Source of the DNA: an uncultured Kofleriaceae bacterium
GTDB taxonomy: Bacteria; Myxococcota_A; Polyangia; Haliangiales; Haliangiaceae
Assembly (NCBI GenBank): GCA_964617845.1
Contig: CAZUAR010000003.1
Coordinates: 69,908-133,907 of the forward strand
Direction of reading: 5' to 3'
Length of the DNA stretch: 64,000 nt
The notes under the pieces were generated by a model. It saw only the letters and a list, made by a program, of their open reading frames with translations, did not search any database and was not told the DNA's origin. Below, piece by piece: positions 4,201 through 18,333 of this stretch. Positions within the stretch are counted from its first letter, which is position 1. Every line of letters starts with the position of its first letter. The position numbers were made by a program, and so were the translations under genes.

Positions 4201-4320
4201 GGCGCGAACTGCCGGACGACGGTGACGAGCGCGGCGTGATCGGCGGGCTGCGCGAAGCGGAGCACGAGGAACGCGAACGCGGTCTCGCCTTGTCGCGGCT
4301 CGAGGCCGTGGATGCGCATC
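1248..4320 (-). CDS. large poly-acidic multidomain protein: unknown N-terminal domains, (DGDVD)n and poly-D/E tracts, C-terminal HEAT/PBS-lyase-like repeats
   Basis: 1083-aa ORF; the likely start is MRIHGLEPRQ (ATG overlapping the upstream stop as TGATG at about 4320). C-terminal repeats of type AVPALIRVLETSP / SAVPALARVIAQP resemble HEAT/PBS-lyase repeats. The terminal 60 aa are almost pure D/E. GC3 and length are far beyond the antisense alternatives. Confidence 0.75.
2735..2905. repeat. tandem 15-bp repeat (atcgtcgacatcgcc, about 11 copies) inside the CDS, encoding (DGDVD)n
   Basis: Directly visible in the sequence 2741-2905: near-perfect tandem copies with occasional single-base variants (tggacatc, atcatcgac). 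Confidence 0.85.
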
Positions 4321-7300
4321 AGTTGCCTTCCTGACGCGCGTGCCACTCGCGGAACAGCGCCTTGAACTCCGGCCACTCGAGGAGCGCGCCGAGGTCGGTG
4401 TCGACCTCGACCTTCTGGACATGATCGTACTCGTGCTCGATCGCGAGCTTCACCTGCTGCAATGCTCGGGCGTAGTCGCCGACGGCGGCGTAGGCGCACG
4501 CGGCCGAGTGATAGATGTACGGGTTCTCGTGGGCGACGGACTGTGCGCGGTCCGCGATCTTGACCGCCGCGGCGAAGGCCTTGGCGGCGTGGGCCTGGAC
4601 GCAGGCGTTGTTGAGCGCGCGCAGGTAGTTCGCGCGGTCGGTGCCGCTCTCGGGGATCGGTTCGGCGAGCACGCGATCGTAGAGCGCCATCGCCGCCTCG
4701 GGCTGCTCGTGCCTGATCGCCTTGTAGGCGAGCGCGGATAGCAGATCGACGCTATCCGGCAGCATCGGCACGAACGCACGCATGCGATCGGGCGCGTGCT
4801 CGAGGATCAGCTCGCCGAGCTCGCCGAACAGCTCGGGCGAGATGTCGCCGAACGAGACCATCGTCGTCGAGAGGACCGTGTCGACGGCGTCGACGAACCG
4901 GGCGTGCCCGCGCTGGCCGAGGCGAACGGCGACGTTGATCCGAGTCCCGGGCTCGAACGCGGAGAGGCGGCCGAGCAGCTCGTCGATCGTCCCCGGCAGG
5001 CCGGCGTCGTCGCCGTCCACGAGGAGGATCGCGTGCGTGAACTGGATGTCGGGGTCCGACGGCGCGAGGCGAAGCGCGCGCGCACTGACCCTCAGCGCGG
5101 CCGCGACTCGCTCGGGTCGTGTCTGCCGCGGCTCGGCATCGTCGGCACCGTCGTCGTCGTCGTCGTCGTCGCCGTCATCGTCGTCCGCGTCGGGCTGGCT
5201 CGCCGCCTTCGCGGCGCGGCGCGCGTTCTCCTCGTCGATCATCGCCTTCGCGCGCGCCGGATCCGCGATGCCCTTGACGTCGACGACGGCTCCGTCGCGC
5301 GCCGTGATGTAGCTCGGCGTCACCTCGATCTCGAGAGCGGGCCACGCCTCGAAGTCGTAGGCACCGGCCTGTGCCTCGCGGAGTTGCACCTCGATCTCGC
5401 GCGCGAGCTCCTGCGTGACGAGCAGCGTCAGCTGATTGTCGGCGAGCGTGTAGCCGACGGCGCCGGCGGGTTGCAGCTCGAGCACCTGGCCGCGCCCGCG
5501 TAGCTCGTAGGGACGGTCGTGTCGCAAGCGCCCGCGCATCGCACGCGGCAGCGCTGGTGCGTACAGGGCGCCGAGCTCGATCCGCACGCGCCCGTCGTCG
5601 ACATCGAGCTTCATCTCTCCCGCAAACGAAAGGTCCTCGGACGATCCCTCGGCGGCGACTCGCTGCTCGACCTCGCGCGCGACGATCGGATCGTCGAGCA
5701 CCGACGAGCGTGCGAGATCGGTGACGAGCACCGGCAGCTTCGTGCGCAAGATGTCGACGAGGCCCGTCGTCGTCCACTCCTGGATCAGGCGGTACTCGTC
5801 GTCGGTGATCCCGACGATCTGCACGAAGCGCGCGGCACCGAACGGCGACTCGATCTCGCCGAGCTCGGGATCATCGGCGAAGCACACGGCCGTGATCTTC
5901 GTGTCGTGATCGAGCGCGATCGGCCCGTTGAGGCCCATCTTGTGCCCCGCGGCGAACGCGTTGCCCGAGTTGAAGACGTAGCGCGCGAGGTTCTGCAGGA
6001 AGTTGAGCGCCCACGTCGGCGGCTCGTGATCGTCGAGCGCGCGCGCGATGCGCAGCGTCAGCTCGAAGCCGAAGCCGCTCTCCTCCGGATCATCGGTCTC
6101 CTTGTGATGGAGGTCCGTGAAGCCATACGTGACGAAGTGCCAGTGCGGCACCGGCTCGACGCGCTCGTAGGCCGACAGTCCGGGTAGCGGATCGTCGCCG
6201 CCGAGGCCGTACGGCATCACCGTGCCCCAGTGCTGCGGCCGCTGGTCGGGATAGATCTTCGCGAGCGCGCGATCGATCGCGTCCCAGCCCGGCATCGCGT
6301 CGTCATCGCGATCGTCGTCGGCGTCGGCGTCGTCGTCTGCGCCGATCGCCGGTGTCGAGCCGCCGGGCTCGGGCTTCATCACGACGCCGCCGAGCGCGTC
6401 ATCGCGCAGCAGGCTCCCGACGAGCACCGCCTCCATCTCGGGCGACAGCTCGGCGGCGATCCGCGGCACCACGACCGCGCGCTGTGCATCGTCGAGCGTC
6501 TCCAGCTCGTCGAGCGCGACGATGGGCGCGGGATCCTCCGCGTTCAGCTTCGCGAGCAGCGTGCGATGCGCGACGCCGTCGTCGATCCACTTCCACGCGA
6601 GCTCGGGCCACGCGCTGCGGCCCGCCCGTTCGAGCTCCGCGGCGACCTCCGCCGCTCGCTTGGCATCCTGCGCGGCTTTCGCGGCGGCGCGCTCCGCCCG
6701 CAGCGCTTCACCGCGCGGGTCGAGATCGAGCGCGCGGAACTCGGCGAGCCATGCACGCACGTCCTTGATCGTGCCGAGCGTGTTGCGCCCGCCGCGCAGC
6801 TCGTCGATCAGCTTCGCAGCATCGCGCACGAGCCGCGCTGCATGAACGCGCGCGATCTCGAGGTAGCGATCGAGCTCCGGCTCGTCGAACAGGTACGCGC
6901 GCCACATCGCGTAGAGCGCCGTCGGGATGAACTTCTCGCACGCCTCGTAGCGTGCGGGCAGCTGCTCCGCCGGCACGACCTGATTGAGCTCGGGCTGGAA
7001 CAGGTCCGGGATGTCCTCGATGTCGACGACGCCGTCGTTCTTGAGCAGCGCGCAGATCCAGCGCGAGCGGTAGAAGAAGAACTCCGACTCGCGACGCTTC
7101 GCCTCGAGGTGCACGAACGCGGAGTCCTTGTCGTCGATCGAGAAGTGCCACGTCGGCGAGACCTTCCCGCGCAGCGCCTGAATGCCGCGGTCGTACGCCT
7201 CCTGCGAGATCTTCTTCGCCTCGCCGAGCTTCACGATCGACGCGAGGTAGACGAGGCTGTCGAGCGAATCGGCGAACACGCCGCTGAACGACGCGGTCTC

Positions 7301-8802
7301 GTGATCGAAGTGGATGATCTGACGAGGGCCGTCCCACTCGTAGATCTCCATGTGATAGGTGTCGCCGTTTCCCTGCGAGCCGATCCCGAACACGCCGCAG
7401 AACGCCTCGACGAGATCCGTCCCGAGATACGCCTGCTGGTTGCGGCGGACCATCAGCTCGAACAGGTTCTTCTCGCCGACATCGGGCCGGATGTCGTTGT
7501 CGAGCCGTAGCTCCTCGAACGTCGACCACGAGTTGGCCCCCTCGATCTTCGACCAGAACGCGACGGCCTCCGGCGGCATCGGCACGCCGTAGATGTCGGC
7601 GAAGTCGTCGGCGTCGCCGGGCTGCGCGAGGACCGAGAACGCCTCCTCGTCGACGGGGTTGCCGTCGTCGTCTACTTCCTGCGTGCCCTGCTCGTCGCCT
7701 TCCTCGTCGTCGTCGTCGTCGTCGTCCTCGTCGTCGTCTTCTTCGCCGTCGTCCTCGCCGTCGTCGTCATCCTCGTCGTCGCCCGCGTCGTCCTCGTCCT
7801 CGTCGACCTCGTCGAGAGACGCGAGGTACAGCGACAGCCCGCGCTCGATGAACCCGGTCGGCCCCGCCGCGAACAGCACGTCGAGATCGCGCGGGCCGCC
7901 GAACACGTCGACTCTCTCGGCCCACGTCAGGTCACCGGGCGGCGCGAGCTTCACGACGAGCCCGTCGTCGCCGCCGATCAGCACGCCGCCGCCGAACCGC
8001 TCGACGCCCCAGAGGTGCACGAGGCCGAGCTTGTTCGGCACGCTCGCCCACGAGCGCCCCTCGTCCGACGACACGAGCACCGTCCCGCGATCACCGACGA
8101 CGACGACGCGTCCATCGCGCAGCGTCGCGATGCCTTCGAGATCGACCTCGCTGTCGACCTTCACCCGCGAGAACCACGTGCCGTCCGGCGAGCGCCCGAT
8201 GAAGCCGCCGTCGCCCGTCACGATCCACGCGGACTTCGTGCACGCGAGCGCGGTCAGCGGCTTGGTCGTGCCCGTGTTGAGCACGGTCACCTTGCCGTCG
8301 ACCCAGCGGCGCAGCTTGCCGTCGAAGCCGAGCACGCAGATCTCGTCGCGCACCGCGTACACCGCCGACAGCCGCGCCGTCGTGTCGAAGTCCACGCGCA
8401 CCGGCCTCTCGCCGAGGATGCGCACCGCGAAGCCGTTGTCGCCGACGCACCAGATCGCCCCGTCGGTTCCCAGCGCGAGACCGAACAGACACAGCTGGGT
8501 ATCGACGTCGATCAGCGTCCAGGTCTCGCCGTGGTCGCGCGACGTCGCGAGCTGACCGTATTCGCCGCACACCCAGATCGCGTCACCGACTGCGAGCGCG
8601 TCGCGCAGCCCGAGGGCGCGCGGCGTGGAGCGCAGCTCGTAGCGACGCGCGTTCGACGACGCCATGATCGTCGCGTGCGATCCCGATCCGCCCGACGCGA
8701 CGACCATCTGGTCGGTCACGGCGAACGCGCTGATGAAGCCCCGATCCCCCGCCGCCGCCTGCAATATCGTCAGCTCGAGCTCCCCGATCATCGCGCGCCG
8801 AT
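4319..8802 (-). CDS. giant multidomain acidic protein: N-terminal BNR/Ycf48-like beta-propeller, SUKH (SMI1/KNR4)-like domain, SUFU-like domain, TPR-like C-terminus, several poly-D/E linkers
   Basis: Start is MIGELELTILQ (ATG revcomp at 8800-8802). BNR motifs SRDHGETW, SPDGTW, SDEGRSW sit in the first about 330 aa. The SUKH-like block is GNGDTYHMEIYEWDGPRQIIHFDHETASFSGVFADSLDSLVYL. The SUFU-like block is YPDQRPQHWGTVMPYGLGGDDPLPGLSAYERVEPVPHWHFVTYGFTDL...GFGFELTLRI. The stop TGA overlaps the next ATG. Confidence 0.75.
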
Positions 8803-8853: not shown

Positions 8854-10530
8854 CTAGTCCGTCGCGTCCCAGTAGTCGACTTCGGCTTGCACGGCGGCCG
8901 AGAGATCCTCGCCGCCGCCGCCCTTCACGGCCCACAGATAGTCCGTGAAGAAGTTGTTGCGTACGCGCGTCACGCCGAAGTGCGGCTGGTCCGCGAGGAT
9001 CGCCTCCGCGGTCAGATCCGTTCCGCCGTGCTGGTGGCAACCGATGCAGTTCGTCGCCGCGTTGCCCGGCCCGAGCTCGAGGTACGGGTTACTGCACCAC
9101 GACGGCTCGTTCGTCCCGCGGTTCACCACCGCGAGCGCGTCGCCGAGCGTCCCCGAGAACCCGCCGCGCGGATCCGGATCCCCCTCGAGGTACTGCGTCG
9201 CGACGCACATCTTGTAGTTGCGCCACGGCCCCGCGTTCGCGAGCGCCGCCGGACGATCTGCTCCGAAGTCGGTGTCGGGGAACGGCGAGTACCACAGCGT
9301 GATCCACATCCAGTGGTCGAGCTCCTTCGACATGATGTGCAGCGCCGGCAGCCGGAACTTCGCGCCCGTCGATGGAACGATCATCGTGTAGATGTCCGCC
9401 GGCCCCGGCCCCATCTGGCCATCCTCGTTCCACGTCGACTCGCTCTCGAAGCGCGCGGCCATGCGATCCGCCGACGTGTTGAACACGGGCAGGAGGTCGT
9501 TCAGCTGGAACTGCCGCCGCCAGTCCGCCTTCACGACCACCGCGTCGCGAGGCATCTCTCCATCGAGGCAGGTCGGCAGCCGCACGTCCGCCGTCGTGTA
9601 GGCGACATCGACGTCGACGTCGGCGTCGCTCGCCGCGAACACCGCGACCCACACGGGCCCGCCACCGTCGACCTCGCAGCTCTCGCTCGACGAGTCGCCG
9701 TCGGACTTGCAGTCGTACGTCGCGGCATCCGGTGCCTCTCCGCGACGCACGTAGATGTCGGCGTCGCCGGAGCCGCGCGACGTCACCTTCACGCGCGCGT
9801 CGCCGGCTTGAAACGGACCGAGCACGCGCCACGCGCACTTGTCGAGCGCGAGCTGCTCGCTCGCCGTCGTCGCCTGACCCTCGCGCATCTCGCTCGCGTC
9901 GAACGGCTCGGGCGCCGGGTTCAAGCGGCACTGATGCAGCCGCTCGTAGCTGGAGAGCAGGTGTTTGAGCGCGCCCGGCGAGTAGCCGACCCGCGTCGCG
10001 TTGGTCAGCCCCTGCGCGAGCTCCGGCGAATCGATCGCCGCGAGGTAGTCGAGGTATCGCTGCTCGGGCCACTCGGGGACATCATCGAGCGCGACCGCAT
10101 TCCACGCGAAGCCGCTCGCCGGATCGATCGCCGCGCGAGCGGCGCGCCCCGCCGGGCCGAGTCCCTCGTAGAGGTGCTTGAAGATGCGCTCGAAGTCATC
10201 GCGCGCGTACCACGTCGCCCACGCGGGCACCGTCGGCTGCGTGCCGCCGAAGCTGCTCGCGAGCCGCGGGTCCCCGAGGGGGACCGGTGCGAGAACCTTC
10301 TGCACGACATCCCACGCCGCCGCGCGACGCGACGCGATCGACGTGCGCAGCTCTTCATCGCGCGCCGCGAGCCCGAGGTCGGGCGTGTACGGCGCTGCTT
10401 CACCGACGACGCGCCGGTCTTGAATCAGCGACGCGCTCGACACCTCGCCCATCGACTCGAGATCGCAGTCGGCGGTCTTGTCGTCCGGCCCGCAGGCCGC
10501 GACGAGAACGAGGAGAGCGATACGACGCAT
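8854..10530 (-). CDS. secreted lipoprotein with one CxxCH heme-binding motif and a PPC (pre-peptidase C-terminal)-like domain
   Basis: MRRIALLVLVAAC lipobox signal. CIGCHQHGG is near the C-terminus. The block GDADIYVRRGEAPDAATYDC is shared with the downstream paralog. Confidence 0.7.
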   Translation of the reverse strand: MRRIALLVLVAACGPDDKTADCDLESMGEVSSASLIQDRRVVGEAAPYTPDLGLAARDEELRTSIASRRAAAWDVVQKVLAPVPLGDPRLASSFGGTQPTVPAWATWYARDDFERIFKHLYEGLGPAGRAARAAIDPASGFAWNAVALDDVPEWPEQRYLDYLAAIDSPELAQGLTNATRVGYSPGALKHLLSSYERLHQCRLNPAPEPFDASEMREGQATTASEQLALDKCAWRVLGPFQAGDARVKVTSRGSGDADIYVRRGEAPDAATYDCKSDGDSSSESCEVDGGGPVWVAVFAASDADVDVDVAYTTADVRLPTCLDGEMPRDAVVVKADWRRQFQLNDLLPVFNTSADRMAARFESESTWNEDGQMGPGPADIYTMIVPSTGAKFRLPALHIMSKELDHWMWITLWYSPFPDTDFGADRPAALANAGPWRNYKMCVATQYLEGDPDPRGGFSGTLGDALAVVNRGTNEPSWCSNPYLELGPGNAATNCIGCHQHGGTDLTAEAILADQPHFGVTRVRNNFFTDYLWAVKGGGGEDLSAAVQAEVDYWDATD

Positions 10531-10615
10531 GGGGAAGAGTGACGACAAGTGTAGACGCAAAAAGGGAGACTGGTGTGACCAGTCTCCCGTCGGGGAACTG
10601 CCTATCCGTCCTCGA

Positions 10616-13600
10616 TCAGGGGTTGGTCAGCGCGGCGTCGCTCGCCACCGCGTACTCCTTGCCCGAGTTCGTGTCGCGGACGAGGAAGTAGAACCAGCCG
10701 TCCGAGCGGAAGTGCGGGAACAGCGCGAACTGGCCGGCCTGCATCGTCGTGACGCGAGTGCGAGCACCCGTGAGCATGTTGACGAGGATGATGTTCGCGG
10801 TGCCCTTCTCGAGGAGCGTCCTGAACGCCGGGTCGTTCGCCGACGAGTAGCCGAGGTCGGCGTAGTCCGCCTCCGTGATGTAGTGGTGCGTCACGAAGTA
10901 CTTCTCGTCGAAGGAGATGCTCGGCTTCGCACCCTGCGTGCAGTAGCGACCGACTTCCGTCGTCGTGATCGTGTAGCTCTGGCCGTTCGGGACCGTGTTC
11001 AGCTTGCGAACGACGTAGCCGAGGTGACCGCTCGCGTTACCGATGCGCGAGATGACGAGCTTGGTCGACGGCGAGAGGACGGTGTCACCCTCGTACGGGA
11101 CCTTCACGCGAACCTCCGGCTTGCCGACGTAGTGCGCGCCGTCGAACACCATCGGCGTGAACTTCATCTCGGCATCCGCACCGAACGCCGCCGCCGGGTC
11201 ACCGGTCTCGCCCGCGCTCGGGTTATCCGACGTGAACTGGCTGTTGACCGCGAAGTAGTCGGCGCCCGCGAGGCCCGCACCGAGGTGCTGGTAGAGGCTG
11301 ACCGTTCCGACCGACGAGCACGCCGACTCGGAGAAGTTGATGCTGTCGGGGTTCGACGTGAGCAGCGACATCTTGCAGAACGCCGCGCCGATCGGGGTGC
11401 CCTGGAACATCCAGCCGCGGTTATCCGGGAAGAAGCCGGGGTCGTACGCCGCGTCGACGTTCATGTCCTTGTTGGTCTGGAGGTCGGAGATGACCGCGCC
11501 GTCACCACCCGAGCGCGAGCCGTTCGCCACGAAGCGACCGTCCGCCGAGGAGCGCATCCAGTAGAAGGTGTTGAACGCGAGCTCGCGAATCACGCGCAGC
11601 GTTCCGACCTTCGTCCAGCCGTTCGCGTACGGCTTGCTGGTGGCGTTCGGCGACGACTGGAGGCACTGCTTCGGGTCGGTCGTGCCGGCCGCGCAGCCGA
11701 ACATGTTGATGTTGGCCTGGCGGTTGACCGCGCCCCAGCCGCTGGTCGCCATCGCGTTCACGTGCGTCGACATCTCCGGCTTCACCGACTGCGTGCACGA
11801 GGTCGGGCCCGTGTCGGCCGGCAGGTAGATGGACGCGCGCGGGATGCCACGAGCGAACCACTCGGCGATGATGTCGAACTCCGGCTGCGTGAAGCGCGGG
11901 TGGTTGCCCTTCGGCATCGACACGCGGTTCTTGAACTTGCCGTACTCGAGCGCCCACGTGTCGGCGTTGTTGCCGTCCTGGCCATCCGGGTACGCCTGCT
12001 TGAAGACGTCCTGGAACCAACCGAGGTGCGAGCCCGCGGCGTAGATGCCGAGCTTGCCCGGGTTGAACGGCGAGTCGTCCTGGTCGGGGTCGAGGCGGAA
12101 CTGCGCGACGCGGTCCTTGGCGGGCATCGCGTTCGCGAGCGGCTTGACGTACTTCGTCGTGACCTTGACCGTGCCGTCGTCCGAGCCGAACAGACCGACG
12201 TAGAACGTCGCCGGGCCGGCCGCGTTGAAGATCGTCTTGTCGCACTTCTCCGTCGACGTCTGCGCGAACGGGCGGCAGTCGTACTGCGTCTGCGAGACCT
12301 CCGCACCGCGGCGGACGTAGAGGTCGATGTCACCGGTGCCAGCGATCGAGATCTCGATCTGCGAGCCCGCGGCCACCTCGTACTCGCCGACCTCCTTGAA
12401 CTCGTTGTTCTCGACGCGGATGCCGGCGGACGTGCTGTTCACGGCCTCGCCCTGCGCGTCCGCATCGCGGAACGCGGTCATGACCGCGTGGTCCGTCTTC
12501 TCTTTCCAGTCCTCGAGCGTCGCGATGTTGCCGACGTGGCAGTCCGTGCAGTTGTTCTTGAGCGCGTTCTTGTTCATGCCGAGCAGCGTGGTCGCCTGCT
12601 TCGCGAGCTCGTCGTCCGAGAGGTTGACGGGGTTGCGGAGGCGGCCACCGGCGTCAGCACCACCGAGCGTCTCGGGGACCGGCTTCCAGTCGCAGCCAGC
12701 GCCGGACGGGTTCGTGTTGCACGCCTGGATGAAGTCGAGCGCCTTCTTCTGCTCCGACGCGTCCCACTCCTCTTGCGAGGCGAACACGTGGTCGGTCGGC
12801 ATCCAGTACTTGTTCTCCGGCTTGAGGCCGTGGTTCGTCGTGATGTTGTTCCACGCGGTGTCCGTGCCCTCGAGGCGCGTGAGCCACTGGTCGGCCCAGC
12901 GACCGTCGCCCATGCGGTGGCACTTGGTGCACGCGTTCGCCGCGTCACCCGTGATGTGCTTCGGCATCGTCCAGCCCTGGCCCTTGCGGTTGACGAGAGC
13001 GTACGGCGTGTCGTTCGCGCCGATCGCGAAGTCCGGGTCGATGCCCATCTTCGGGATCACGGGGCGGCCGTTCTGATCCTTCGCGCCGTCGATCCATGGG
13101 CTGTGGATGAACGCGTCGGCGTCGTGGCAGCTCGCGCACTCGATGCCCGAGCCGAGGCCGCCGTGCACGCCGGCCCACAGGTTCGACGACTTCACCTTGT
13201 CGCCGGGGTGCGGGACGTGCGCGCCGTCGGTCTTCTGATAGAGCGCGTTCTGGAAGAAGCAGGTCTTACCGGTGAACGGGTTCGTACCGATCATCGCGAT
13301 GTCGTTGAACTTGGACGACGAGTAGCTGCCACCCGTGCCCGACTCGGCGACGCTCTTGCGGCAGAGCAGCACCCAGCGCGTGCCTTGCTCGTTGATGCGG
13401 GTCGCGACGCGCGGGCCGGACTCGCACAGCGAGTAGATGTACTGCGGGTTGTCGCACTTGGACTCGTTGCCCATCTGCGGCGCGTTGACGGTGCCGTTAT
13501 CGGCGGTGACCGTCATCGGGATCGGCGTCGAGTCGAGGCAGTTGTACGTGCCGTAGTCGCCTTCGCCGAGCTTCTCGAAGAACGGAATCTCGCCGAGCTG

Positions 13601-14125
13601 GTCGACGCAACGCTCCGCGTACGCTTCGGGGCTGTTGAGGCGCTGCTCGCCGCTCGGGTCGTCGGCCTTGCCGCCGATGCCCTTGCTGCGCGCCTTGTCC
13701 CACGCCGCGAACAGGTCGCGCTCCTGCGAGAAGATGACCTCGCTGCCGTCCATGATGCAGACGTCGATGATGGAGTCGGTGCCCTTCTTGGCCTGCTCGA
13801 TCATCTCCGGCGTCGGGTTGAGCCACTGGTCACCCTGGTAGAAGGGCTTCGTCAGGTCCTGGTCGACGATCGGGCCGTCGTTGCGGCCCTCGTTCGCGGA
13901 GATGGACTCCACCTCGTTGACCAGCTGGGCGCAGTCGAGCGTCCCGAAGCTGCCGCGGCGAGCGCGTGTGTAGATCGCTCCGTCCACGCTCTGGTTGAGC
14001 TCGATAACGATGCGGCTGTTCGCATGGTTATAGAGGGGGGTCACCTGCAGCTCTTCGTCACATGCCGTGACTCCGAGCGTGAGCGAGGCGAGGATGGCAA
14101 CTCGAGTGGCCGCGCTAGTCCGCAT
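10616..14125 (-). CDS. large secreted lipoprotein with three CxxCH heme-binding motifs (putative multiheme c-type cytochrome) and a PPC-like domain
   Basis: MRTSAATRVAILASLTLGVTAC lipobox. Motifs CASCH, CTKCH, CTDCH. The block GDIDLYVRRGAEVSQTQYDC is paralogous to the neighbour. GC is lower (about 62-64%) than the surroundings. 1169 aa. Confidence 0.75.
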   Translation of the reverse strand: MRTSAATRVAILASLTLGVTACDEELQVTPLYNHANSRIVIELNQSVDGAIYTRARRGSFGTLDCAQLVNEVESISANEGRNDGPIVDQDLTKPFYQGDQWLNPTPEMIEQAKKGTDSIIDVCIMDGSEVIFSQERDLFAAWDKARSKGIGGKADDPSGEQRLNSPEAYAERCVDQLGEIPFFEKLGEGDYGTYNCLDSTPIPMTVTADNGTVNAPQMGNESKCDNPQYIYSLCESGPRVATRINEQGTRWVLLCRKSVAESGTGGSYSSSKFNDIAMIGTNPFTGKTCFFQNALYQKTDGAHVPHPGDKVKSSNLWAGVHGGLGSGIECASCHDADAFIHSPWIDGAKDQNGRPVIPKMGIDPDFAIGANDTPYALVNRKGQGWTMPKHITGDAANACTKCHRMGDGRWADQWLTRLEGTDTAWNNITTNHGLKPENKYWMPTDHVFASQEEWDASEQKKALDFIQACNTNPSGAGCDWKPVPETLGGADAGGRLRNPVNLSDDELAKQATTLLGMNKNALKNNCTDCHVGNIATLEDWKEKTDHAVMTAFRDADAQGEAVNSTSAGIRVENNEFKEVGEYEVAAGSQIEISIAGTGDIDLYVRRGAEVSQTQYDCRPFAQTSTEKCDKTIFNAAGPATFYVGLFGSDDGTVKVTTKYVKPLANAMPAKDRVAQFRLDPDQDDSPFNPGKLGIYAAGSHLGWFQDVFKQAYPDGQDGNNADTWALEYGKFKNRVSMPKGNHPRFTQPEFDIIAEWFARGIPRASIYLPADTGPTSCTQSVKPEMSTHVNAMATSGWGAVNRQANINMFGCAAGTTDPKQCLQSSPNATSKPYANGWTKVGTLRVIRELAFNTFYWMRSSADGRFVANGSRSGGDGAVISDLQTNKDMNVDAAYDPGFFPDNRGWMFQGTPIGAAFCKMSLLTSNPDSINFSESACSSVGTVSLYQHLGAGLAGADYFAVNSQFTSDNPSAGETGDPAAAFGADAEMKFTPMVFDGAHYVGKPEVRVKVPYEGDTVLSPSTKLVISRIGNASGHLGYVVRKLNTVPNGQSYTITTTEVGRYCTQGAKPSISFDEKYFVTHHYITEADYADLGYSSANDPAFRTLLEKGTANIILVNMLTGARTRVTTMQAGQFALFPHFRSDGWFYFLVRDTNSGKEYAVASDAALTNP

Positions 14126-14251: not shown

Positions 14252-15427
14252 CTAGCGAATTGCTCGTGATGTGCATCCGGCTGCAGCCTGCCGCGTGGCG
14301 TCCGCGGAGACCTTGCAGGCCGCCCTGGCCGCCTCGAGCGCCTCCCCGGTCAAGCCCGACCACTCCTCGATCGCCTCGTCGTACGCGTCCTTCATCGCGT
14401 CTCGGGTCGCCACGGACAGCGACGCGCACGTCTGGAGCGCCTCGACCGCGAGCGCGTACTCGTCGCACTCCGCGATCCCGGTCAGCTTCATCTTGGAGGT
14501 CGTGATGGCCGCCGGAAAGCCCCACCGGCTCGCCGGCACTCCCGCGAGGACGTAGCACTCGTCGCGATCGTCGCTCACGATGCAGGCGCGCGCGTCGACC
14601 GTCCACTCCTTGCACGCCGCGAGCATCGCGGTCCTCGACGCCGCGATCGCCTTCGTCCGGTTCGAGCCCGTCAGCGCGGGCGCCTGCCCCGTCCACCTCG
14701 CCGTCCCGTAGTGCGCGGCCACGACCTTCGGACACGTGACGTTCGCGGGCCGCGCCTTCGCCTTCACGATCCGGATCCGCAGACCGTCGGCCTGCGCGAT
14801 CGTCTCGTCGACCTGCTTGCGCCCCGCGTCACCGAGCTGATCGATGCACGCCGTGATGCCGCTCGCCGGCGTCGTGGCGATGCAGCTCCGGACCTCGGCG
14901 CTCCAGCGCTCGCTCTCGCACGACGCCCGAAGCGCTGCGCCTCGCAACCTCCACGCGAGCGATCGCTCCGCCTCCACGGTCACGAACGGCGGCCACGCGT
15001 CGACGGACGTCGCCGCGAGCGCCTCGGTGCACGTCGTGTCCGCCACCGCGTCCGCTCCCGCACGATCGCCGTCGGCGTCCCCGGCGCTCGCGCCGTACGT
15101 CTCGAGCGCCTTGTCGTAGCTCGCGCGCAACGCGGGCGAGAGCTGGTCGAGGCAGCCCTGCACCGTCGGCTCGGTCGCGCTCGCCGCGCACGCGAGCACC
15201 GCCGGTGGCCAGTGATCGCGCTCGCACGACGCGATGATCAGCGCTTCCTTCTTCGGTCCCTCGACGTCCTCATCATCGATCGGTCCGCGCAGGAGCGGGC
15301 CCATGTCGGCGCACGTCGGCACCGAGCTCACCGGCGTTCGCACCGCCCGCTGACTCGGTGGCTTCGCGGGCGGCGTCGACGGCGTCGAGCATGCACCGGC
15401 GAGCAGACACGCGAGGACGAGGCGCAC
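14252..15427 (-). CDS. Cys-rich hypothetical lipoprotein
   Basis: MRLVLACLLAGAC lipobox. 391 aa with many paired cysteines. Lies 31 bp downstream of the acyl-CoA dehydrogenase gene on the same strand. Confidence 0.55.
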   Translation of the reverse strand: MRLVLACLLAGACSTPSTPPAKPPSQRAVRTPVSSVPTCADMGPLLRGPIDDEDVEGPKKEALIIASCERDHWPPAVLACAASATEPTVQGCLDQLSPALRASYDKALETYGASAGDADGDRAGADAVADTTCTEALAATSVDAWPPFVTVEAERSLAWRLRGAALRASCESERWSAEVRSCIATTPASGITACIDQLGDAGRKQVDETIAQADGLRIRIVKAKARPANVTCPKVVAAHYGTARWTGQAPALTGSNRTKAIAASRTAMLAACKEWTVDARACIVSDDRDECYVLAGVPASRWGFPAAITTSKMKLTGIAECDEYALAVEALQTCASLSVATRDAMKDAYDEAIEEWSGLTGEALEAARAACKVSADATRQAAAGCTSRAIR

Positions 15428-17324: not shown

Positions 17325-17344
17325 CTGAATGAACCGTCATTCAG
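17325..17344. promoter_or_regulatory. perfect inverted repeat CTGAATGA-N4-TCATTCAG in the divergent promoter region (candidate operator)
   Basis: Seen directly. It sits 37-56 bp upstream of the acyl-CoA dehydrogenase ATG and overlaps the first alternative ATG of the divergent TolB-like gene. Confidence 0.4.
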
Positions 17345-17394
17345 TTTATGGCCACACTTACGCGTCGCGTCAACCACCGTCGGGAGATTCCGTC

Positions 17395-18333
17395 ATGGGA
17401 TGCTGGGACGTGGTCCGGCCTCGCGAACCGCGATGTCTCCCTGCGAGTGGATGCGCGTTCATCGCGCTCCTGCTCGGCTGCGGTCGCATCGGGTTCGATA
17501 CCGGCTCGTCGATCGATGCGCCGGGCGACGGTGGGCCCGACACCTCGATCGACGCACCGCTGGCGTTCGGTCCGTGGCTGACGCCGACCGAGGTCGCCGT
17601 GATGAACACCACCTCGATGGACTTCGGTCCGACGTTCTCGCCCGACGCGAGCGAGGTGTACGTGTCTCAGCGGTTCACCGGTGACGCGGAGATCTTCCGC
17701 TTCACGCGTGCGGATGCCGCGAGCGCGTTCGGAAACAAGACCGCGATCGCCGCCATCAACGTCTCCGGCGGCTCGGAGGAAGGCGAGCCATCGCTGTCCG
17801 ACGATGGGCTCGAGCTGTGGTTCAACAGGTACGCGCCCGATCGGATCTTCGTGAGCACGCGCTCGAGTGTCACCGTGACCGATTGGACCGCGCCGGTGCT
17901 CGTCGACACGATCCATCCGAACCTCGCCGGATTTCATTCGCCTGACTTCTCTGCCGATCGACACATGGTGCTGACGAAGGACGGGATGATCTGGGAAGCG
18001 ACGCGTCCGTCGTCGACGTCGCCGTGGGGCGCACCGGTCTCGCTCGGCATCACCGGCGACGTTCCGTGCATGCGCCGCGACGGGCTCGAGCTGCTCTACG
18101 AAGGCGCGGTCACGATCGCCGGCATGCCGTCCGTCGCGATCATGCGCCGCACGCGCGCGTCGATCGGCGTCGCGTTCGGTCCCGAGGAGCGGCTCTCGTT
18201 CGGCGCGCTCGATGTCGCCGGCGTCGGAGATCCCGAGCTGAGTCACGATGGAAGCACGCTGATCTTTTCGGCGGAGGAGGTGCTCGGAAACGTGACTTAC
18301 GATATCTACATCTCGGAACGAGTCATCGAGTGA
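17395..18333 (+). CDS. TolB-like/PD40 beta-propeller repeat lipoprotein
   Basis: Lipobox IALLLGC after a charged N-region. WD40-like beta-propeller (PD40) repeat character (SPDASEVYVS, SDDGLELWFN, SHDGSTLIFS). Start chosen at ATG 17395, which has a GGGAGA RBS; an alternative ATG is at 17329. Confidence 0.65.
   Translation: MGCWDVVRPREPRCLPASGCAFIALLLGCGRIGFDTGSSIDAPGDGGPDTSIDAPLAFGPWLTPTEVAVMNTTSMDFGPTFSPDASEVYVSQRFTGDAEIFRFTRADAASAFGNKTAIAAINVSGGSEEGEPSLSDDGLELWFNRYAPDRIFVSTRSSVTVTDWTAPVLVDTIHPNLAGFHSPDFSADRHMVLTKDGMIWEATRPSSTSPWGAPVSLGITGDVPCMRRDGLELLYEGAVTIAGMPSVAIMRRTRASIGVAFGPEERLSFGALDVAGVGDPELSHDGSTLIFSAEEVLGNVTYDIYISERVIE

Follow-up and report, generated by a model that had tools for sequence, protein, structure and literature searches.

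Two adjacent genes, A and B, were analysed in a 64,000-nt stretch of DNA (the window) from an uncultured bacterium of the Kofleriaceae, where both lie on the minus strand within positions 8854-14125. They encode predicted lipoproteins with one and three CxxCH haem-attachment motifs, respectively, and are proposed, with slightly better than even confidence, to form a conserved extracytoplasmic haem-c oxidoreductase module of two subunits, which would exchange electrons with cytochrome c. The proposal draws on the conservation of the motifs, the domain layout of the proteins, the linkage of the genes, and their fusion and fission among relatives, from which we infer contact between A and B, as well as catalysis.

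8854-10530, minus strand: gene A, a predicted mono-haem lipoprotein of 558 amino acids (aa) and conserved partner of B; open reading frame (ORF); 644 homologues in a large protein collection; AlphaFold 2 (AF2) model with a predicted local distance difference test (pLDDT) score of 81.9
10616-14125, minus strand: gene B, a predicted tri-haem lipoprotein of 1169 aa; ORF; 285 homologues in the same collection; AF2 pLDDT 82.6

An initial annotation of this DNA had described two adjacent lipoproteins of 559 and 1169 aa on the same strand. The adjacency, the strand and the length of B were reproduced, while A was found to be 558 aa long.

Haem-attachment motifs, candidate ligands and export signals

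Translation of the two genes revealed a single CxxCH motif in A (CIGCH, residue 495) and three in B (CASCH 330, CTKCH 399, and CTDCH 526), the same counts as had been noted initially. Given the Cys and His content of each protein, chance alone would yield 0.003 motifs in A and 0.0096 in B. Alignments of the B family (57 homologues) and the A family (54 homologues) showed no exception at any of the four motifs, and CxxCH is kept in more distant ORFs with 38-57% identity, 14 of them B-like and 9 A-like; the sole A-like ORF that lacks the motif (L071) stops at the end of its locus. The initial annotation had named a failure of the motifs to be conserved in orthologues as one observation that would speak against haem, and they proved invariant down to 38% identity. 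The positions of the motifs of B, and of its candidate axial ligands, are as follows.

13124-13138, minus strand: haem site 1, CASCH (C330, C333, H334); invariant, with a CxxxCH variant in Pendulispora and P0421
12917-12931, minus strand: haem site 2, CTKCH (C399, C402, H403); invariant among B homologues and distant relatives
12797-12805, minus strand: WMP motif (W441, M442, P443), whose Met is a candidate axial ligand of haem 2; no variation among 22 B sequences
12536-12550, minus strand: haem site 3, CTDCH (C526, C529, H530); invariant, with CTRCH at residue 76 of a Pendulispora 639-aa protein as its counterpart
11606-12139, minus strand: helical region of B, residues 663-840 (helices in the AF2 model), which includes an MPKG motif at 11906-11917

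Sites 1 and 2 are separated by 69 residues in 13 of the 14 distant B orthologues and by 76 in the remaining one (L073). Site 1 reads CMGSCH in Pendulispora albinea and some relatives, a CxxxCH variant in which the site is not lost. In a set of 22 B sequences with 38-89% identity, to which the invariant residues of B given below also refer, M737, P738, K739, and G740 of the MPKG motif are invariant, and the Met of the WMP motif is invariant also across a wider family of di-haem proteins (M293 of alignment A4, described below). WMP and MPKG are thus candidate Met ligands of haems 2 and 3, a role suggested by conservation. No invariant Met was found near haem 1, where H306 and H341 are invariant; H341 (13103-13105) is replaced in 4 of the 15 sequences of alignment A4.

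Both proteins begin with a signal peptide and a lipobox, which satisfies the pattern [LVI][ASTVI][GAS]C in each translation (VAAC, in the context ...LVAAC, in A, and VTAC, in the context ...LGVTAC, in B).

14060-14125, minus strand: signal peptide and lipobox of B (MRTSAATRVAILASLTLGVTAC); Cys22 is kept in at least 90% of 57 homologues
10492-10530, minus strand: signal peptide and lipobox of A (MRRIALLVLVAAC); Cys13 is invariant in A homologues

With the lipobox Cys conserved among homologues, the initial view of A and B as lipoproteins held, and both are predicted to be exported and lipid-anchored. This would place them in the compartment where haem is attached to c-type cytochromes. Covalent binding of c-type haem, as had been suggested initially, is the natural reading of the four invariant CxxCH motifs, the conserved export signals and the candidate Met ligands, and haem occupancy and axial ligation are predicted on that footing. 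It is supported because CxxCH is invariant, because chance would provide about 0.01 motifs or fewer per protein, and because WMP and MPKG are invariant.

Domain architecture and linkage of B and A

The AF2 models and the family alignments divided the two proteins into the following domains.

13676-14053, minus strand: N-terminal alpha/beta domain of B, residues about 25-150 (AF2 secondary structure); kept in a Pendulispora 577-aa protein
12671-13633, minus strand: predicted di-haem core domain of B, residues about 165-485; 527 phmmer relatives; uncurated family
12140-12454, minus strand: PPC domain of B, residues 558-662, inside the third haem module; PF04151, 35.5 bits; PDB entry 2luw, E=2e-11
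10640-11599, minus strand: six-bladed beta-propeller of B, residues about 843-1162, with an invariant polar pocket
9916-10428, minus strand: N-terminal helical domain of A, residues about 35-205
9589-9879, minus strand: PPC domain of A, residues 218-314; PF04151, 29.4 bits
8857-9573, minus strand: C-terminal alpha/beta haem domain of A, residues 320-558, with CIGCH at 9034-9048

The first two haem sites of B fall within its di-haem domain, which is rich in beta-strands in its first half, and the third sits in a helical module that starts at residue 526 and is interrupted by the PPC domain. A phmmer search with B residues 25-556 against 1.84 billion representative proteins returned 527 relatives, among which the segment of residues about 165-485 recurs in several architectures: stand-alone lipoproteins of 340-390 aa with about 30% identity to B; the C-terminal domain of 730-880-aa proteins that carry an N-terminal class-I cytochrome c domain and a fibronectin type III (fn3) domain; and proteins of about 480-600 aa. 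The class-I model PF13442 scored above its gathering threshold in two of three tested proteins of the second form. In alignment A4, composed of 14 distant stand-alone relatives and B, the invariant positions comprise two CxxCH motifs, a TGxTC motif, paired Cys, and the Met of WMP. Sequence relatives of this domain were detected in none of Pfam, NCBIfam, and PDB, whether for B or for its stand-alone and fused forms; as judged from these searches, the predicted di-haem domain constitutes a separate, uncurated family. One of the stand-alone members, a 364-aa di-haem lipoprotein in L079 (8001-11650), is encoded 11 bp upstream of a quinoprotein-like gene with LodA_N and LodA_C domains and is flanked by radical S-adenosylmethionine genes; a LodA neighbour was seen in one of the five stand-alone contexts examined. 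BLASTP of A and B against the L079 neighbours gave nothing and the other four contexts lack LodA, and the LodA association is at most a lead.

The propeller of B superposes on solved six-bladed propellers and resembles those of TolB and sialidases in a fold search of the model. No PD40, BNR or GSDH Pfam match was obtained in B or in 15 B homologues, and for lack of a family-level hidden Markov model (HMM) match the propeller was not assigned to TolB, sialidase or pyrroloquinoline quinone (PQQ)-sugar dehydrogenase. Its invariant residues include R858, D862, R864, Y894, D895, D901, Y945, and H947, as well as D956, D1014, R1027, K1067, E1074, H1080, and H1138, a set of polar side chains whose conservation suggests a binding or catalytic pocket. 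The haem domain of A has C495, C498, H499, Q500, H501, H398, K402, E403, Y439, K440, and Y531 as invariants and no invariant Met; in its model, which contains no haem, the pLDDT predictably drops near the haem site. Homology of A to the di-haem domain was also examined and discarded, the hhalign probability of the A family profile (A3) against A4 being only 3.9%.

A and B match the Pfam PPC model PF04151 above its gathering score of 25.9 bits over A residues 242-288 and B residues 583-646, as do 15 of 15 B homologues scanned. Profile and fold searches showed their beta-sandwich fold to agree with solved PPC and collagen-binding domains. These results bear out the PPC-like block that had been recognised by eye (GDADIYVRRG..YDC in A and GDIDLYVRRG..YDC in B). 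The accompanying description of the genes as a paralogous pair was not upheld: both BLASTP and an hhalign comparison of the two family profiles (probability 98.7%, E=2e-16) were confined to the PPC region, A 218-314 and B 559-662. Four Sandaracinaceae/Polyangiales B orthologues tested gave no PPC match, nor did the three Pendulispora albinea proteins orthologous to the halves of B and to A, and only about 21 residues stand at the place of A's PPC domain in Sandaracinaceae/Polyangiales A orthologues. Insertion of the domain into A and into B therefore took place within a single lineage, and the PPC domains are, by this comparison of orthologues, lineage-specific, dispensable accessory inserts and not the core of A or B. 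They share a true PPC beta-sandwich with the C-terminal domain of the Vibrio vEP metalloprotease (2luw) and with the collagen-binding domains of clostridial collagenases, but are internal and inserted in predicted haem proteins, rather than placed at the C-terminus of a protease. Another beta-sandwich accessory swap was observed in L073 (11396-13558), whose A orthologue ends in a class-I cytochrome c domain and a proprotein-convertase P-domain.

With PPC as the sole recognised domain in A and B, a sialidase-like propeller and many conserved Cys (16 non-haem Cys are invariant in B), one may ask whether the proteins are secreted hydrolases or adhesins, in which CxxCH would form disulfide or metal sites with no haem attached. 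This appears very improbable. No peptidase or glycosidase domain is present, in every CxxCH the His is as invariant as the two Cys, the Met-Pro motifs and the genuine cytochrome c domains fused to relatives point to haem, and PPC itself is missing from the distant orthologues tested.

The proposed pairing of A with B draws on gene order. A scan of one genome per species returned 166 relatives, of which 76 loci were kept, all 76 in Myxococcota assemblies. In about 48 of the 76, the most distant ones included, A is the next gene downstream of B, and L069 and L073 show a 4-bp overlap between the two. In the cultured Pendulispora albinea (CP089984.1, L081 8001-13175), three consecutive genes encode proteins of 577, 639, and 479 aa, which correspond to B residues 19-485, B residues 665-1169, and A, respectively; the 639-aa protein has a CxxCH only 28 residues before the part aligned to B. 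This fission or fusion links the two halves of B, and the gene for the A orthologue follows immediately after them. An extra C-terminal class-I cytochrome c domain (PF13442, 58-70 bits, cutoff 27) was found in four of four Sandaracinaceae/Polyangiales A orthologues tested (L069, L072, L073, and L078). The PF13442 fusions of A orthologues, together with those of the distant di-haem proteins, suggest that the module exchanges electrons with a soluble pool of cytochrome c.

Among the matches listed from the large protein collection, identities ranged from 52 to 100% and nearly all were approximately full-length; where a name was given it was "PPC domain-containing protein", from Kofleriaceae or Myxococcales metagenome-assembled genomes. 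Identity to the window proteins was 50-90% in Kofleriaceae/Haliangiales and 38-46% in Sandaracinaceae, Polyangiales, and Polyangia. In the collections searched, the module is restricted to Polyangia lineages, namely Kofleriaceae/Haliangiales, Sandaracinaceae, Polyangiales, and Pendulisporaceae.

Known haem proteins and the proposed mechanism

The initial annotation had remarked that neither protein resembles a standard cytochrome family, and profile searches agreed: outside PPC, no significant Pfam, NCBIfam or PDB match was obtained. Pfam and NCBIfam scans of A, B, 15 B homologues, the stand-alone relatives and the Pendulispora proteins found PPC and the fused class-I cytochrome c domains only. 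PDB profile searches (A2, A3, A4) returned 2luw (PPC) only, and their local matches around CxxCH were insignificant (e.g., SoxA, E=0.07). Class-I cytochrome c models (PF00034/PF13442) did not match A or B of the window, and the best such match across the B family was PF13442 with E=0.0024, in 3 of 15 members. Planctomycete PSCyt1 and PSCyt2 are short modules of the form CxxCH ... MP ... W/helix within big multidomain exported proteins, a layout that A and B resemble; PSCyt2 was matched in 1 of 15 members (E=0.32) and PSCyt1 in none of 15, and A and B, with this faint PSCyt2 match only, are not members. No mention of the B/A family was found in the literature searched on Kofleriaceae cytochromes and Myxococcota CXXCH proteins.

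A likeness in overall design was noted with oxidoreductases that combine haem c with a propeller, such as the cytochrome cd1 nitrite reductase NirS, type II quinohaemoprotein alcohol dehydrogenases, the alpha subunit of hydrazine synthase, and a fungal PQQ pyranose dehydrogenase that has a cytochrome domain. These are extracytoplasmic, have cytochrome domains fused to an active-site propeller, and exchange electrons with soluble cytochrome c, as is proposed for B and A. However, B and A have no sequence match to them, the propeller of B is six-bladed and TolB/sialidase-like, its di-haem domain has no relative among known families, and B and A are predicted lipoproteins with a separate haem partner, A.

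In the mechanism proposed for the module, B would bind three haems covalently, with haems 1 and 2 in the di-haem domain and haem 3 in the cytochrome-c-like module. Haems 2 and 3 are probably His/Met electron-transfer haems that would relay electrons, and the reactive centre would be either haem 1 of B or the haem of A, both of which lack a conserved Met. The invariant Arg/Asp/His/Tyr pocket of the propeller, fused to the haem chain, is a likely substrate- or cofactor-binding site. A would add a fourth haem and probably connects the module to soluble class-I cytochrome c. A periplasmic or surface substrate would thus be oxidised or reduced, with electrons passing to or from the cytochrome c pool.

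A different use of the same haems would be that of outer-surface cytochromes like the MtrC/OmcA decahaem lipoproteins, which pass electrons to minerals or other cells; A and B share with them a lipoprotein anchor and predicted c-type haem. Weak, sub-threshold Pfam matches to Mtrc-MtrF_II-IV_dom (13.3 bits, cutoff 30) and to Paired_CXXCH_1, in all 15 members scanned, as well as surface-type accessory domains across the family (PPC, the lamin-tail domain (LTD), P-domain, and fn3), are compatible with this role. However, these scores lie far under threshold, as does TIGR03507 in a distant relative (11.8 bits, cutoff 209), and no porin or periplasmic decahaem partner was found at the loci inspected. 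With three motifs in the 1169 aa of B and one in the 558 aa of A, rather than ten, and with spacings of 69 and about 125 residues, no packed haem wire is formed. The haems of Mtr proteins are bis-His ligated, whereas the candidate Met ligands of B would suggest high-potential haems. Such an extracellular conduit is considered quite improbable.

A functional analogy to the di-haem cytochrome c peroxidases and MauG (PF03150) was also considered. These proteins have two c-type haems, one ligated by Met and one not, and a class-I cytochrome c as partner; class-I cytochrome c is the usual donor to bacterial cytochrome c peroxidases. The di-haem domain of B likewise pairs one predicted haem with an invariant Met and one without, and class-I cytochrome c fusions recur in the family. 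By this analogy, the Met-less haem 1 of B or the haem of A would meet H2O2 or O2, the His/Met haems would bring electrons from cytochrome c, and the propeller would hold a protein, lipid or polymer substrate. The stand-alone relative located 11 bp upstream of a LodA-like gene is in keeping with this chemistry, LodA-type oxidases being producers of H2O2, as are the recurring acyl-CoA dehydrogenase, fatty-acid desaturase, fatty-acid hydroxylase, and short-chain dehydrogenase/reductase (SDR) neighbours. The LodA context, however, was one of five, and the lipid-related neighbours belong to very common families. Neither A nor B nor any of the 15 B homologues matched CCP_MauG (PF03150) at E<=1, no other peroxidase or structural match was obtained, and the first half of the di-haem domain of B is predicted to be beta-rich, whereas the di-haem peroxidase fold is largely helical. 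The resemblance would accordingly be one of function only, and a peroxidase or oxygenase of this type is judged unlikely, if with a distinct chance of being correct.

Several observations weigh against the favoured reading of A and B as two subunits of an oxidoreductase module. Neither protein matched an enzyme family in the profile searches. B paralogues with 58-64% identity, some with a lamin-tail domain, occur without an adjacent A. No conserved third gene (transporter, regulator or substrate pathway) was seen at the inspected loci, and the neighbours differ in Sandaracinaceae, Polyangiales, and Pendulispora. Finally, a hairpin separates the two genes in this lineage, so that strict co-expression is not assured.

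10554-10588, minus strand: strong terminator-like hairpin and T-tract in the 85-bp gap between B and A; 11-bp stem with seven GC pairs, followed by TTTTTG

Hairpins of differing sequence with a T-tract also follow B in L001, L003, L004, L005, L009, L010, L014, and L020, while none was found after B in L002, L006, and L045. The hairpin may attenuate the expression of A relative to that of B.

Genomic neighbourhood, base composition and significance

Upstream of B in the window lies a further lipoprotein gene that is possibly associated with the module, in Kofleriaceae only.

14252-15427, minus strand: Cys-rich lipoprotein of 391 aa, directly upstream of B; Cys 4.6%; no Pfam match

Weak homologues of this protein (30-60% identity) occur upstream of B in about 20 Kofleriaceae loci, and the order acyl-CoA dehydrogenase, Cys-rich lipoprotein, B, A, and SUFU-domain giant protein is limited to that family. 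The giant protein (window 4319-8788, minus strand) has 1489 aa, a SUFU domain (PF05076, E=1e-40), a weak N-terminal BNR/YCF48-like match and long poly-Asp/Glu tracts, and is found downstream of A in the window and in roughly 30 related loci. Just past the acyl-CoA dehydrogenase gene, a 334-aa ORF (17329-18333, plus strand) gave a borderline match to PD40, a TolB-like propeller repeat.

Variation in the arrangement of B was also observed. In L036 (6123-12299) and L048 (6115-12320), B paralogues of about 1440 aa with a C-terminal lamin-tail domain and no adjacent A adjoin a divergent gene that resembles an extracytoplasmic function (ECF) sigma factor in its N-terminal sequence, by eye, and a gene of about 370 aa. 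In a close relative with 89% identity (L003, 11504-13461), B and A are set apart by about 1.9 kb of additional DNA.

A fatty-acid desaturase gene is located upstream of B in L072 (6762-7745) and L074 (2-250), a fatty-acid hydroxylase gene adjoins two stand-alone di-haem relatives, and SDRs and a MAPEG protein are also among the neighbours of the family. The recurring lipid-type neighbours lie at L072 6762-7745, L074 2-250, L085 5013-5879, L088 3629-5349, L086 5087-5899, and L033 8381-9145. The recurrence of genes for the oxidation of lipids or hydrophobic compounds, all from very common families, may indicate a lipid-related substrate.

The initial annotation had placed the pair in a lower-GC segment, possibly of horizontal origin. 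Measured against 3.5-kb windows (mean GC 0.6875, standard deviation 0.017), the lower GC applies to B only, and modestly (0.661, 6th percentile), A being above the mean at 0.697. The GC of B at third codon positions (GC3) is 0.94, compared with a gene mean of 0.889 (standard deviation 0.036), whereas the value at position 1 is 0.57 and the fraction of Phe, Tyr, Met, Ile, Asn, and Lys (FYMINK) residues is 0.245, against a mean of 0.168. The low GC of B is thus explained by codon position 1 and a FYMINK-rich amino-acid composition; the "aac/aag" codons remarked upon initially are C- and G-ending codons for Asn and Lys. The housekeeping acyl-CoA dehydrogenase gene two genes upstream of B has the same profile (0.61/0.41/0.92 at the three positions, mean about 0.65, not above B).

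Hence, although the GC of B lies below the mean, its placement in a horizontally acquired island is scarcely credible: GC3 exceeds the gene mean, the deficit is limited to codon position 1 and to a FYMINK-rich pattern common to the neighbouring acyl-CoA dehydrogenase, the order acyl-CoA dehydrogenase, lipoprotein, B, and A is conserved across Kofleriaceae, and the family is confined to one bacterial class.

Polyangia myxobacteria are abundant predators in soil and wastewater, and their extracytoplasmic redox chemistry is poorly known. The label "PPC domain-containing protein", carried by hundreds of proteins, names an accessory insert and hides a conserved module predicted to hold four haems; recognising B and A defines an uncurated di-haem family with no Pfam, NCBIfam or PDB counterpart. 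Pendulispora albinea, a cultured organism with a naturally three-gene system, provides a testable target. More tentatively, and with rather more doubt than belief, B and A may represent a new class of extracytoplasmic haem enzyme, with a catalytic di-haem domain of a fold unrelated to known peroxidases, oxygenases, and cytochromes, acting together with a propeller that binds the substrate and a dedicated mono-haem partner, that would oxidise a lipid-like or envelope-derived substrate, for example in predation or in the handling of oxidised lipids. If so, the stand-alone di-haem lipoproteins of about 350 aa in other bacteria would be a minimal form of the same chemistry. In the favoured reading, B and A would be a variation on the known theme of haem-plus-propeller oxidoreductases: if catalytic, they would offer a new haem-enzyme scaffold, and if only electron carriers, an ordinary addition to the cytochrome repertoire.

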